Both the position numbers and the translations under genes were made by a program. A stretch of 54,375 nucleotides of DNA from an uncultured virus (IMG/VR IMGVR_UViG_3300024420_000237) (taxonomy: Duplodnaviria > Heunggongvirae > Uroviricota > Caudoviricetes), in IMG/VR virus record IMGVR_UViG_3300024420_000237, positions 62,001 through 116,375 of that record. One strand, given 5' to 3'. The first letter of the stretch is position 1, and each line of letters begins with the position of its first letter. Shown piece after piece: positions 22,452-39,759 of this stretch. The notes beneath the pieces are model-generated. The model made no database searches. It had not been told where the DNA came from and was given only the letters and a program-made list of their open reading frames with translations.

Positions 22452-22479
22452 TTGACAGATTAGCGAATCGTAGTATAAT
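22452..22479 (+). promoter_or_regulatory. Early sigma70-type promoter with TAGCGAATCGT spacer motif
   Basis: TTGACA, 16 bp, TATAAT; spacer motif shared with 22869-22896. Confidence 0.75.
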
Positions 22480-22511
22480 AATAGTATATTCAATAAAGAG
22501 AGGGTTTAAAT

Positions 22512-22865
22512 ATGACTACAATGACAGTAAAAGAACTAAGTGTGTTAGCAGAATCAAAAGCAAATCAGGCTTCTTTAGATTATTTCAATTCAAAACTAGG
22601 TGGTAAGGACAATTATCCCTGTGGTTTTGCATGGGTTACTGTTCGTCCTGAAAATAAGGGCAATACTAAGCTAGGTAAAGAAGAACGTAGAGTGTTAGAA
22701 TCTATGGGATTTTCAAAAGATTGGACTGGCAAAGCGTGGCAAATCTGGAATCCAGGTAAAGTTAACGTACAAAATGTTGATGTTAAAGAAGCAGGTGCTC
22801 AGGCATATGCAGATGTAATGTCTTCTGCTGGGTTTAATGCTTCTTGTGGTTCACGTTTAGACTAA
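22512..22865 (+). CDS. Hypothetical early phage protein (CGFAWV motif)
   Basis: 117-aa ORF with AGAGAGG RBS and its own promoter. Confidence 0.8.
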   Translation: MTTMTVKELSVLAESKANQASLDYFNSKLGGKDNYPCGFAWVTVRPENKGNTKLGKEERRVLESMGFSKDWTGKAWQIWNPGKVNVQNVDVKEAGAQAYADVMSSAGFNASCGSRLD

Positions 22866-22868
22866 AAC

Positions 22869-22896
22869 TTGACAAACTAGCGAATCGTGTTATATT
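22869..22896 (+). promoter_or_regulatory. Early sigma70-type promoter with TAGCGAATCGT spacer motif
   Basis: TTGACA, 16 bp, TATATT with extended TG. Confidence 0.75.
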
Positions 22897-22926
22897 AATT
22901 ACATAATCAACAGAGAGGTTACTAAT

Positions 22927-23274
22927 ATGAAATACAAGTTATATCAAATTCATCTTACAGATGCAGAAATTGATTTAATCAATGAAGAAGGACATGATGC
23001 TGTTCATAAGCAATCATTGAAATTAGATATGAATTTTTCAAAGAATGACACAGGTATGGTTGCCCGGGATGCATTCAATCGTGGATACTACACGCATGTT
23101 AGTAACATCACTGCTGATAGTTTAGAGGGCGTGTTTCATGTAGGGAACATGGGCCCAGAAGAAGACATTGAGCGTTTGTCTCGTATGTACAGTGTTAGTG
23201 TTGGTGACATTGTGGAAGATGAAGATGGCAAGCAATCAGTAGTTGCTAATTTTGGTTTTAAAGAGGTAGCCTAA
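22927..23274 (+). CDS. Hypothetical early protein, possibly YodL-like
   Basis: YKLYQI N-terminus, SLEGVFHVGN and SVSVGDIV..GF C-terminus resemble the YodL domain pattern; AGAGAGG RBS. Confidence 0.5.
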   Translation: MKYKLYQIHLTDAEIDLINEEGHDAVHKQSLKLDMNFSKNDTGMVARDAFNRGYYTHVSNITADSLEGVFHVGNMGPEEDIERLSRMYSVSVGDIVEDEDGKQSVVANFGFKEVA

Positions 23275-34495: not shown

Positions 34496-35092
34496 ATGAA
34501 AAACGTTTTAATAACAGGAAACAGAGACTATGGGCTTTGCAAGAGTATTTGCAATCTGTTTGATACTGTGGATGATATTAACTATACTACTGTCAGTCGG
34601 AGCAATGGTTGGAATTTGGACGTAGGTCCAGAACAAAAACGACTAGCAGATTATTTTGTAGATAATAAATTTGATATCTTTATTAACAATTCCGCAATAT
34701 GGAAGTTTCATCAAATTATGATTGCTGAACAAGTTTATGCAAAATGCGTTGAAGAAAAGCATTCTGCATATTTGATACATATGGGTTCTACAGCCGATAC
34801 AGGTGTAAAAGGAAGAACGTGGAGATACCCAACTGAAAAGAAAGCATTAAGAGATTACAATCGTGACCTAACATACATGACAATGGGTGGGTCTAATATA
34901 AAGACTACATGTTTGTCACCGGGCAGTTTGACTACACCAAGTGTGATGAAAAAACACCCTGATAGAAAGTTTTTAGATACAGAGTATGTAGCCGATTTAA
35001 TTTTATGGTTGATTAATCAACCAGATTATGTTAATATTAACGAAATTTCTGTAGACCCAATACAAGCAGGAATATACGCAAGAGAGAGGTAA
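34496..35092 (+). CDS. Short-chain dehydrogenase/reductase (SDR)
   Basis: VLITGNRDYGL, DIFINNS, HMGS, YxxxK (YPTEK), LSPG and VNINEISV motifs. Confidence 0.85.
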   Translation: MKNVLITGNRDYGLCKSICNLFDTVDDINYTTVSRSNGWNLDVGPEQKRLADYFVDNKFDIFINNSAIWKFHQIMIAEQVYAKCVEEKHSAYLIHMGSTADTGVKGRTWRYPTEKKALRDYNRDLTYMTMGGSNIKTTCLSPGSLTTPSVMKKHPDRKFLDTEYVADLILWLINQPDYVNINEISVDPIQAGIYARER

Positions 35093-35096
35093 ACGT

Positions 35097-36905
35097 TTGC
35101 TAAAGATTAAGAATATAACAGTTAAAAACTTCATGAGTGTAGGTAACGTCACGCAGTCTGTAATACTGGACCGTGATGCATTAACACTCGTTTTAGGTAA
35201 TAACTTAGATTTGGGAGGCGATGGTTCTCGTAATGGTACAGGAAAGACCACACTTATTAATGCACTTTCATATGGTATATATGGCAATGCACTTACTAAT
35301 ATTAGAAAAGACAATCTAATTAATAAGACAAATGGTAAGAACATGATTGTCACCATTGATTTTGAATTCAATGGAAGTCAGTACAGGATTGAACGTGGAC
35401 GTAGACCTAATATATTCAGATTCATTAGAGACGGTATAGATTTAAATTCAGCCGATGATGTAGCACAAGGCGAAATGAGACAAACACAAGTAGAAGTTGA
35501 TTCTATTATTGGTATTTCTCATTCAATGTTTAAGCACATTGTTGCACTCAATACCTATACTGAACCTTTCTTAAGTATGAGAGCAAACGACCAAAGAGAG
35601 TTGATTGAAGAACTTTTAGGTATTACAGAATTATCTCGTAAAGCTGATGCACTCAAGGAAGTAGTTAAAGAAACAAAAGACCAAATCAAAGATGAAGAAT
35701 ATAGTCTTAAGGCAAAAGAAGATGCAAATTCTCGTATTCTAAAGAGTATTACAGACATAGAACGTAGGCAACGTATATGGAATGATAAACATGATACAGA
35801 ATTAACTGAATTAGAATCTGCCCTAGACGCATTATCTCATGTAGATATCAAACAAGAGATTGCTAATCATCAATTATTAAATGCATACAATGATAAGAAA
35901 ACAAAGTTAGATGAAGCGAACCGTTGGGTTACAAGTATTACTGCCGACAATAAAAAGTTTTCTGATTTAGAAGTAAGAGTAGTCGGTGATATAGAATCTA
36001 TCAAAGACCATAAATGCTTTGCATGTGGACAAGAAGTACACGATAGCAAACAAGAAGAAATTCTAAAAGATAAAGAAGAACTATTAGCAGATACACGCAG
36101 TCATTTATCAGAAAATAATGTAAAACTAGAGGAACACACTACCACAATAAATAACGTAGGTGAACTCGGTAGCAAGCCTTCGGTGTTTTATGAAGACTTA
36201 AATGATGCATACGAACATCAAAACTCAGTTAGTATGCTGAAGGAACAAATTGAAAGTAAGAAAACACAAGAAGACCCGTACACTGAACAGATTAAAGAAA
36301 TGCGTGAAAGTAGTTTAGAAGAATTAAACTACAATACAATGAACGCACTTATTTCTTATCGTGAACATCAGGACTTCTTAATGAAACTATTAACAAACAA
36401 AGATAGTTTTATTCGTAAAAAGATTATTGACCAAAACTTATCATACTTAAATACACGGTTAGAAAAGTATCTTGATAAACTAGGTCTACCACATGAAGTC
36501 AAATTCTTAAGTGATTTGACAGTAGAAATTACAGAGTTAGGTCGTGAACTTGACTTTGACAACTTAAGCAGAGGTGAACGTAACAGACTTATTCTAGGAC
36601 TATCATGGGCATTCCGTGATATCTATGAATCACTTTATAGTACTATCAATGTTCTATTTGTTGATGAACTTATTGATAGTGGTATGGATACTAATGGTGT
36701 TGAGTCGTCATTAGCAACACTTAAAAAGATGCAACGTGATAGAAATCGTTCTATCTTTTTAGTGTCACACAGGGACGAGTTATACGGTCGTGTAACAAAC
36801 GTGCTTAACGTAATTAAAGAAAACGGATTTACTACATTTTCTCACGATGATGCAGTAGAATTAACTGATACAAATAAACCAGTAGAAGGAGTACCTAATG
36901 TCTGA
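35097..36905 (+). CDS. gp46: Recombination ATPase subunit (gp46; Rad50/SbcC-like)
   Basis: Walker A NGTGKTT, coiled coil, zinc hook CFAC, signature LSRGE, Walker B LFVDE, SH switch; TTG start after GAGAGAGG. Confidence 0.93.
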   Translation: MLKIKNITVKNFMSVGNVTQSVILDRDALTLVLGNNLDLGGDGSRNGTGKTTLINALSYGIYGNALTNIRKDNLINKTNGKNMIVTIDFEFNGSQYRIERGRRPNIFRFIRDGIDLNSADDVAQGEMRQTQVEVDSIIGISHSMFKHIVALNTYTEPFLSMRANDQRELIEELLGITELSRKADALKEVVKETKDQIKDEEYSLKAKEDANSRILKSITDIERRQRIWNDKHDTELTELESALDALSHVDIKQEIANHQLLNAYNDKKTKLDEANRWVTSITADNKKFSDLEVRVVGDIESIKDHKCFACGQEVHDSKQEEILKDKEELLADTRSHLSENNVKLEEHTTTINNVGELGSKPSVFYEDLNDAYEHQNSVSMLKEQIESKKTQEDPYTEQIKEMRESSLEELNYNTMNALISYREHQDFLMKLLTNKDSFIRKKIIDQNLSYLNTRLEKYLDKLGLPHEVKFLSDLTVEITELGRELDFDNLSRGERNRLILGLSWAFRDIYESLYSTINVLFVDELIDSGMDTNGVESSLATLKKMQRDRNRSIFLVSHRDELYGRVTNVLNVIKENGFTTFSHDDAVELTDTNKPVEGVPNV

Positions 36906-37170: not shown

Positions 37171-37347
37171 ATGAATACACATGAAAAAATCGTAGAACAA
37201 TATGAAAACTATTTAACTGAACATGCGGCATGGGAAGAAAAAGGTGTTAAAGCCGCGGCCGCAAGAGCAAGAAAGGCTCTTGGTGAAATTGGTAAAATGA
37301 CCAAAGAACGCCGTAAAGAAATTCAGGAAAAAAAGAATAATATGTAA
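37171..37347 (+). CDS. Small basic protein, histone H1-like Hc1 family-like (58 aa)
   Basis: Not in ORF track. AAGGAG RBS; MNTHEKIVEQYENYLTEHAAWEEKGVKAAAARARKALGEIGKMTKERRKEIQEKKNNM, with a KGxKAAxxRARKA motif. Confidence 0.75.
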   Translation: MNTHEKIVEQYENYLTEHAAWEEKGVKAAAARARKALGEIGKMTKERRKEIQEKKNNM

Positions 37348-37355
37348 AAAAAGTG

Positions 37356-37384
37356 TTGACAACACTTACTTTTTTTGCTATTAT
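37356..37384 (+). promoter_or_regulatory. Sigma70-type promoter driving a non-coding transcript
   Basis: TTGACA, 17 bp, TGnTATTAT; the -35 box sits inside the inverted repeat AAGTGTTG-A-CAACACTT. Confidence 0.75.
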
Positions 37385-37390
37385 AGTAAG

Positions 37391-37502
37391 TATATTAAAG
37401 ATGTGAAGTGTCTCCTCTCAACCTCTCTCATCTAACTGAGCATCTTTATTATTCTCACACAGAGAGCAACATCAAGCCCGGCACAGTGTGTCGGGCTTTT
37501 TT
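37391..37502 (+). ncRNA. Candidate small RNA with CU-rich anti-Shine-Dalgarno loop
   Basis: Bounded by a promoter and a terminator, with no RBS-led ORF. Stem TAAAGATG / CATCTTTA encloses TCTCCTCTCAACCTCTCTC; second hairpin TTCTC / GAGAG. Confidence 0.65.
37474..37502 (+). terminator. Intrinsic terminator
   Basis: AAGCCCGGCAC-AGT-GTGTCGGGCTT followed by further Ts. Confidence 0.85.
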
Positions 37503-37518
37503 ATAGAAAGATTATGTT

Positions 37519-37710
37519 ATGCAACAACCGATTGATAGAAACAAAATTAAACAAATAGAAAAAGAAAAACTAGATAAGCAAGTTAAAAAATATTTGAAAA
37601 AAGGCGGAACTGTTTCAGTATACCCCGAAGGCGCAATCACAGATGAAGGCCAAATGAATTATAAATTTAGACGTGGTATGAAGAAGAAAACTAATAATGA
37701 AAAGCCGTAA
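37519..37710 (+). CDS. Small basic hypothetical protein
   Basis: 63 aa; VKKYLKKGGTV motif is common in small phage proteins. Confidence 0.65.
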   Translation: MQQPIDRNKIKQIEKEKLDKQVKKYLKKGGTVSVYPEGAITDEGQMNYKFRRGMKKKTNNEKP

Positions 37711-39525: not shown

Positions 39526-39759
39526 TTATAATATCGGTGTGCCTGCTTTTTTGCTCATTTCAAAGTTCTGGTCGATAATCTCATTCAGATGTTTGATATG
39601 GCCCACTGGCATTTCATGAAGTTCAGAGATTGAAACCCCTCCTCTCATGTACCAAGATAATTGTAACAGATTCTTATGTACTTTGTCAAGCTCTTTTTGA
39701 AAGTTTTTTTGTTTTTCTACAATTTCTTCACCGCTGGCGGTTGCTAGCCAGCTTAGGAA
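39526..39759 (-). CDS. gp51-like C-terminal extension reached by predicted -1 frameshift from the gp26-like ORF (77 aa)
   Basis: Not in ORF track. Open -1 frame FLSWLATASGEEIVEKQKNFQKELDKVHKNLLQLSWYMRGGVSISELHEMPVGHIKHLNEIIDQNFEMSKKAGTPIL*; no ATG/GTG/TTG until residue 38. Confidence 0.75.
   Translation of the reverse strand, partial: FLSWLATASGEEIVEKQKNFQKELDKVHKNLLQLSWYMRGGVSISELHEMPVGHIKHLNEIIDQNFEMSKKAGTPIL

Follow-up and report, generated by a model that had tools for sequence, protein, structure and literature searches.

A conserved small RNA with an exposed CU-repeat loop in uncultured marine jumbo phages, and its possible role in damping phage early genes

What does a stretch of about 110 nucleotides do in a phage genome when it carries a promoter and a terminator and seems to encode no protein? 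The question is raised by positions 37391 to 37502, plus strand, of the window, a stretch of 54,375 nucleotides that forms the final 54 kb of a virus fragment of 116 kb, estimated to be about 32% complete (here G000). The original prediction described a promoter-to-terminator unit without a credible ORF, whose first stem displays one specific and one generic anti-Shine-Dalgarno sequence.

The unit itself held up. Its sigma-70-type promoter (37356..37384, +) has TTGACA, a 17-nt spacer that lacks GANTC, and an extended -10 box (TG-TATTAT), and it matches the consensus at 11 of 12 bases. A promoter scan of 35-40 kb gave a chance-level count (22 against 21.9 in shuffled sequence), so the promoter rests on conservation and not on the scan: the -35 and -10 boxes are kept in 39 of 40 distinct homologues, the sole miss being a contig end. 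GANTC is present in this promoter in 4 of the 40 homologues and absent in 36. The start of the predicted RNA was placed from the -10 box, and the rest from folding, a covariance model and covariation. The plus strand of 37391-37502 folds at -34 kcal/mol (z -4.6, none of 200 shuffles as stable); minus the terminator, z is just -1.7. Stem 1 (37392..37452, arms 37392-37409 and 37435-37452) is backed by covariation, and folding places on it a 25-nt single-stranded CU-repeat loop (37410..37434) with CCUCUC blocks at 37414-37419 and 37422-37427. The display of anti-Shine-Dalgarno sequence in an exposed loop therefore stands, while its division into one generic and one specific element does not: the two are better described as two copies of CCUCUC, both anti-GAGAGG. 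A small second hairpin follows (37453..37465), with 48% of its alignment cells paired, and then an intrinsic terminator with a U tail (37474..37502), an 11-pair stem at 37474-37498 before the T's. Because the second hairpin is variable and is missing from one homologue (L418), it is treated as dispensable, and the core is taken to be stem, loop and terminator. The longest internal ORF is a 32-codon GTG frame, and indels in the loop and linkers among homologues speak against coding. C/U-rich 22-nt windows like the loop occur just three times in the 116-kb genome, both strands counted. A minus-strand promoter at 37407-37380 was dropped, as by eye it is absent from most homologues.

The loop 19-mer was found at 34 viral loci; these give 19 distinct contexts, each of which has a promoter, a stem and a terminator. 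A covariance model made from 23 sequences gave 76 matches among 94 loci, 40 of them distinct; model R1 scores the window RNA at 115.5 bits, having been built partly from that same sequence. In the model-fitted alignment 21 of 26 pairs show changes on both sides; 83% of cells are paired, where slid controls reach 47% at most, and the covariation score was reached by none of 500 shuffles. An unfitted MAFFT alignment agrees more weakly, with both-side changes in 16 of 26 pairs and 74% of cells paired. Stem 1 shows both-side changes in 8 of its 12 modelled pairs (81% of cells paired; 6 of 12 pairs in the unfitted MAFFT alignment), and the terminator in 10 of 10 pairs (98% paired). The mean unpaired probability of the loop is 0.96, and it exceeds 0.8 in 39 of the 40 homologues. 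Loop columns are 87% identical against 63-77% elsewhere, a comparison biased by the fact that most homologues were found via the loop, and 12 loop variants occur among the 40. Covariation and loop accessibility thus agree with the predicted stand-alone, conserved RNA, and on the sequence evidence the RNA gene is real: a promoter, a long stem with a 25-nt loop, an optional hairpin and a terminator, about 110 nt in all.

Conservation was also sampled independently of the loop, from the best 80 gp46 loci, of which 22 with at least 73% identity were counted as the clade and 58 as the outgroup. The whole RNA is present at 19 of the 22 clade loci; one more is cut by a contig end, and the two without the RNA are truncated loci. 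The exact 19-mer loop is kept at 16 of the 22, where gp46 identity runs from 73 to 100%, so the conservation of the loop in relatives that had been proposed as a check was found. The model matched none of the 39 outgroup loci searched (of 58, with 4-kb flanks), and the loop 19-mer occurs at none of the 58.

The RNA has regular neighbours. Upstream is a 58-aa Hc1 histone-H1-like protein (37171..37347, +; PF07432, E 5e-12). Downstream is a 63-aa protein (37519..37710, +) with a weak likeness to the SutA RNA-polymerase-binding domain (PF20661, 20.7 bits, under the 29.3 cut-off; its Atlas score of 0.87 is a lead only), whose gene has no promoter of its own in the window. The family is basic and is a candidate phage transcription modulator in its own right. 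This neighbour raises the idea that the RNA is a cis-acting leader or attenuator of the SutA-like gene. The same gene family lies 3' of the RNA in 36 of 40 homologues (by eye); in 20 of the 40, the window included, the gene starts 11-23 nt past the terminator with no promoter of its own and would need read-through; and AGAG in the middle part of 34 of the 40 RNAs could pair with the loop. The other 20 homologues have a fresh promoter 3' of the terminator, so the RNA is stand-alone in those, and four have a different gene there. The terminator forms in every single-sequence fold with the loop left unpaired, and L418 lacks the middle part altogether. A cis role therefore seems to have only a slim chance of being right.

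The family appears to be uncatalogued. Rfam gave no match in the window at the gathering level and 11 weak ones at E<=10, the top one driven by the terminator: the Burkholderia double-hairpin family RF02278 (E 7e-4, 27.9 bits against a cut-off of 50), whose score comes from an 8-mer plus the terminator. In a blastn search of cultured phages and plasmids no record covers the RNA. The exact loop 18-mer, searched as exact copies in 185,579 GTDB genomes, occurs 4 times in unrelated phyla, and none of these is scored by the model. Several leads were rejected. A loose promoter-plus-loop pattern gave at least 120 loci, mostly chance or unrelated leader hairpins, and 14 of 53 metagenome pattern matches were chance. 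A model match in Pseudomonas phage PA5oct (39.4 bits) proved to be a double terminator that lacks the loop; the accessible part of that phage's description records four ncRNAs, none at the position of the match (PMC7318152). A match in G007 also lacks the loop. The search that gave these two matches missed the RNA of phage Melnitz discussed below, so its negatives are weak. The 1-kb region around the RNA is present in 19 metatranscriptome runs; in assembled contigs from four of the 19, one contig spans the RNA and three runs have gaps in or beside it, which proves nothing. A literature search confined to openly available main texts found no description of this RNA, nor of a phage sRNA directed against its own early RBS class. 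It is an uncatalogued phage sRNA family of a mechanistic kind that is already known. A separate element came up along the way: promoter-proximal leader hairpins in other phages, in which CCTCTYAAC pairs in cis with an upstream AG-rich arm (L119, L131, L140, L141, L156, L161, L191; also L115, L138, L177, L202).

The closest cultured relatives of the G000 gp46 are those of PA5oct (52%) and Atu_ph07, which makes G000 a Rak2/PA5oct-like jumbo phage; G001 is a close relative of it, complete at 342,607 bases. Judged by such likenesses, the clade consists of uncultured marine Rak2/PA5oct-like jumbo phages, and the phage that carries the small RNA is probably a lytic jumbo phage. Neither clade nor host was identified from the accessible text of PMC12619734 or PMC9123017. 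The host is probably an alphaproteobacterium; bearing on this guess, G001 has a permuted alphaproteobacterial tmRNA (L249:1167-1530), a clue to be used with caution since the Melnitz tmRNA is alpha-type and yet its host is OM43 (PMC9004378). Over half its length the G001 tmRNA shows 78% likeness to Melnitz ssrA; close to it is a manA RNA (L249:4861-5059).

Which messages might the loop read? G000, G001 and a third genome, G002, have a common promoter type in which TTGACA is followed by a spacer with GAWTC at a constant position, a -10 box and a short leader, with 7-18 copies in each. The class is called early because it is of the host sigma-70 type, unlike the GATAAATA motif before structural genes; its timing is presumed on that ground. 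The reverse complement of the spacer motif fits the GcrA consensus YGAKTCK (PMC4647560). A phage-encoded GcrA was not found in four records, and a CcrM-like methylase gave one sub-threshold match. This suggests that the phage may use the host's methylation-dependent activator (GcrA/CcrM).

Two such promoters in the window stand before candidate targets. One (22452-22479) drives the leader of ORF 22512 (22452..22514, +), with AGAGAGG at 22497-22503 (7 nt, predicted duplex -12.4 kcal/mol); the other (22869-22896) drives the leader of ORF 22927 (22869..22929, +), with a 9-nt site at 22912-22920 (-13.8 kcal/mol). A third candidate, also 9 nt, is in the RBS of the gp46/SbcC-like gene (35082..35090, +; TTG start at 35097; duplex -16.9). 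All three complements had been named in the original prediction, and all three are exact and sit 7-8 nt 5' of start codons. At the gp46 site the AGAGAGGT core is present in all 22 clade loci and the full 9-mer in 18 of them; the site doubles as the last codons of the upstream ORF (A-R-E-R-stop). That RBS lies inside the end of a short-chain-dehydrogenase-like ORF (35078-35099; label by eye), an arrangement invariant in the clade.

The predicted AGAGAGG gene class is also borne out, and it is tied to the GAWTC promoter type. AGAGAGG as such is near its Markov expectation in G000 (8 against 5.8), and 6 of the 8 occurrences are at start sites or RBSs, with one more on the RNA's own reverse strand; at start sites are 9 of 20 in G001 and 7 of 14 in G002. 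The motif is in 3 of 5, 5 of 11 and 4 of 9 GAWTC-class leaders (G000, G001, G002), against 2 of 88, 2 of 347 and 2 of 363 other genes. Another conserved sigma-70 promoter, with GAATC in its spacer, is on the minus strand at 39660-39689, within the 3' portion of the baseplate-hub region; G001, G002 and further clade records have it too.

The fit of the loop to these leaders was compared with shuffled loops. The mean loop duplex is -11.6, -12.4 and -14.7 kcal/mol on class leaders against -6.9, -7.4 and -7.2 on other genes (G000, G001, G002). On class leaders the native loop is equalled or beaten by just 6, 9 and 3 of 300 shuffled ones; on other genes the loop is ordinary, with 137, 139 and 31 of 300 shuffles as good. 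Because the leaders of G000 and G001 are for the most part orthologous, the three tests lack independence. A perfect match of at least 7 nt to the loop is present in 19 of 31 class leaders. The matches are just 7-9 nt long, no perfect 11-nt complement of the loop occurs outside the RNA gene in G000, G001 or G002, and the first base of the commonest class 8-mer, AAGAGAGG (8 of 31), to which the consensus of the class extends, is not matched by the loop. In two short fragments with a variant loop (G004, G005), their one GAWTC leader mismatches their loop; a search for longer records of the variant-loop subclade found none. A 16S-tail motif also prefers class leaders (-8.4 to -8.9 against -5.8 to -6.2), so the class leaders may just be strong Shine-Dalgarno sites.

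What is understood of early-gene shut-off in lytic phages comes chiefly from T4, in which a nuclease cleaves the Shine-Dalgarno sequence. Based on the complementarity above, we tentatively favor, at somewhat short of an even chance, a trans-acting anti-Shine-Dalgarno RNA that damps phage early genes, an RNA version of the T4 nuclease RegB. Host sigma-70 RNA polymerase would make a stable RNA of about 110 nt, in which stem 1, as folding and covariation show, holds open the loop with its two CCUCUC blocks. The loop would pair over 7-9 nt with the (A/U)GAGAG(G/A) RBSs of immediate-early genes behind GAWTC promoters, and possibly with the gp46 RBS as well. With the sites so close 5' of the start codon, a paired loop would keep the 30S subunit off, and by analogy with known anti-SD sRNAs decay would probably be faster. 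As the RNA builds up, it may damp the first wave of proteins and spare genes with AAGGAG-type sites, a delayed negative control.

The same complementarity could instead mean that the RNA protects or activates early leaders, shielding their 5' ends from nucleases, with no silencing. RNA and targets are both predicted to come from host sigma-70 promoters, and so would be made at the same time. The paired stretch is, however, the only SD-like element of these 25-30-nt leaders, and covering the sole such element should block initiation. Protection is thus very improbable.

The main rival places the targets in the host. The RNA would be an anti-SD regulator that masks GAGAGG/AGGAGA-type RBSs of many host transcripts, for shut-off or transporter repression, like AbcR or the Burkholderia RNAs, and phage leaders would match through the same strong Shine-Dalgarno sequence. 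That 16 of 22 clade loci share an identical loop core, where phage leaders vary freely, suggests fixed targets, and the best Rfam match, though far below its cut-off, is a toxic sRNA of Betaproteobacteria, a group of RNAs described as covering RBS regions (PMC5688073). Generality is also indicated by the loop of the Melnitz RNA. Its fit to the clade leaders equals or exceeds that of the native loop (z -2.2 to -3.0 against about -2.2), and its fit to the Melnitz leaders themselves is weak, with 15 of 200 shuffles doing as well, so there seems to be no lineage-specific tuning of the loop. On the other hand, on ordinary phage RBSs of the AGGAG type the native loop does not outperform shuffles, and host targets leave unexplained, unless hosts differ, why AG-repeat leaders are missing from the RNA-less phages Mosig, HTVC008M and PA5oct. 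As an account of the RNA the host reading is unlikely, and it is compatible with early-gene damping.

Melnitz, a Methylophilales phage, provides a second case. Its CU-loop RNA (MZ577097 38542-38635) scores 20.8 bits with model R1 and lies under annotated CDS 66; that 59-codon CDS, MelnitzEXVC044M_66, which overlaps the RNA (L432:1043-1136), is probably a mis-annotation. Like the window RNA it has a promoter, a long stem, a 25-nt CU-repeat loop split by a purine pair, and a terminator, and its genome has AG-repeat early leaders. It differs in loop sequence, in belonging to a T4-like phage and in its OM43 host; compared here by sequence, the two could be related by homology or by convergence. 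A scan for promoter, loop and terminator found exactly one CU-repeat unit each in G000, G001, G002, G004, G005 and Melnitz. It found none in Mosig, HTVC008M or PA5oct; of the five outgroup fragments, four have no unit and the remaining one has an unrelated unit. The scan's unit in G008 is not a CU repeat.

AGAGG or GAGAG occurs in 8 of 19, 14 of 44 and 12 of 45 sigma-70 leaders of G000, G001 and G002 and in 5 of 20 in Melnitz, where the RNA is present; where it is absent the counts are 0 of 13 (Mosig), 0 of 14 (HTVC008M), 0 of 19 (PA5oct) and 1 of 46 (five outgroup fragments). This co-occurrence rests on two independent lineage contrasts only, with outgroups that are mostly fragments. Exceptions are G004 (0 of 7) and G005 (1 of 11), which have the CU-loop unit and are 22-26% fragments. 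HTVC008M also has 5 AGAGAGG-ATG against 2 in the control despite having no RNA, and this count is flat in three clade fragments.

The loop might alternatively be a decoy, whose CU repeat titrates a pyrimidine-binding factor, or a sponge that pairs with a purine-rich host sRNA. Possible pyrimidine-binding factors are S1, Rho and cold-shock protein. The loop is repeat-like and slips in register (CU insertions in L274/L275, a deletion in G002), and the same architecture recurs in the unrelated phage Melnitz. A decoy or sponge does not predict complements 7-8 nt before the starts of one promoter class, nor the co-occurrence of RNA and AG leaders, and we give it a small chance.

For early-gene damping, the two lineages lead to a wider proposal, possible though less likely than not: in marine myophages of at least two lineages, the AG-repeat RBS may be an address code by which one CU-loop RNA shuts off a whole class, an RNA-only timer replacing RegB, with the genes of this clade switched on by the host's GcrA/GANTC-methylation signal. 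RegB is the closest known logic, since early mRNAs are there inactivated via the Shine-Dalgarno sequence; it differs in being a protein that cuts GGAG (both as described in the accessible part of PMC3014915). RegB and RegA were not found in four records, in searches run without a positive control. In mechanism the nearest phage case is c4 of phages P1 and P7, an antisense RNA with loops that pair close to the RBS on an mRNA of the phage (PMC12197685, in part). Unlike the whole RBS class proposed here, c4 has one dedicated target, ant, and serves temperate immunity.

The original comparison with AbcR and cuckoo RNAs stands for mechanism and fails for membership: the RNA has the traits of the anti-SD sRNA class (its own promoter and terminator, and a conserved accessible seed complementary to RBSs), is AbcR/cuckoo-like in mechanism only, and is a member of neither. 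AbcR1 and AbcR2 of Rhizobiales are described as RNAs that target host ABC transporters and carry UCCC twice, as module M1 in loop 1 and as module M2 between the first and second hairpins (PMC4152367, in part). The phage RNA resembles them in its length of about 100 nt, its three hairpins (of which hairpin 2 is poorly conserved), its anti-SD seed in the first loop and its alphaproteobacterial setting; it differs in being phage-borne, with both CCUCUC seeds in one 25-nt loop and a dispensable hairpin 2. No UCCC module is present in the loop or linker of the window RNA, AbcR (alpha-r15) has no gathering-level match in the window, and no alpha-r family is among the 11 Rfam matches at E<=10. AbcR repression of ABC-transporter mRNAs is Hfq-dependent; a phage Hfq was not found in four records, with a control detected in 5 of 14 genomes. 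Cuckoo, CcsR and NfeR1 are given as 2-4 adjacent hairpins, each with CCUCCUCCC (PMC4615179, in part). They resemble the phage RNA in that an invariant anti-SD loop sits on a stem with compensatory variation, whereas the phage RNA has a single seed hairpin with one large loop of CU dinucleotide repeats, and CCUCCUCCC is in none of the 12 loop variants among the 40 homologues. The RF02278 RNAs also have CU-rich unpaired stretches complementary to RBSs, with UGUCUCCU in both (PMC5688073, in part), and are unlike it in having another fold and being bacterial and multi-copy.

If early-gene damping is right, abundant marine phages would possess a new timer that works without protein, an sRNA reading a class-specific RBS; if the RNA targets host mRNAs instead, it would be a phage-borne anti-SD RNA for host takeover in an alphaproteobacterial setting. 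On either reading it is an RNA family not yet catalogued, whose Melnitz counterpart is now annotated as a protein. With Melnitz and OM43 in culture, the proposed role is accessible to testing, as it is with simple reporters.

Against early-gene damping stand matches of the loop's 5' half to other genes. One, 10-11 nt long, is to a late-promoter gene in G001, G012 and G015; another is to the RBS of a probable tail-tube gene. The late-promoter gene encodes 121-138 aa in these three (L442, L438 and L441, respectively), 64% identical orthologues with the perfect 10-11-nt complement at the RBS, and is a possible specific target.
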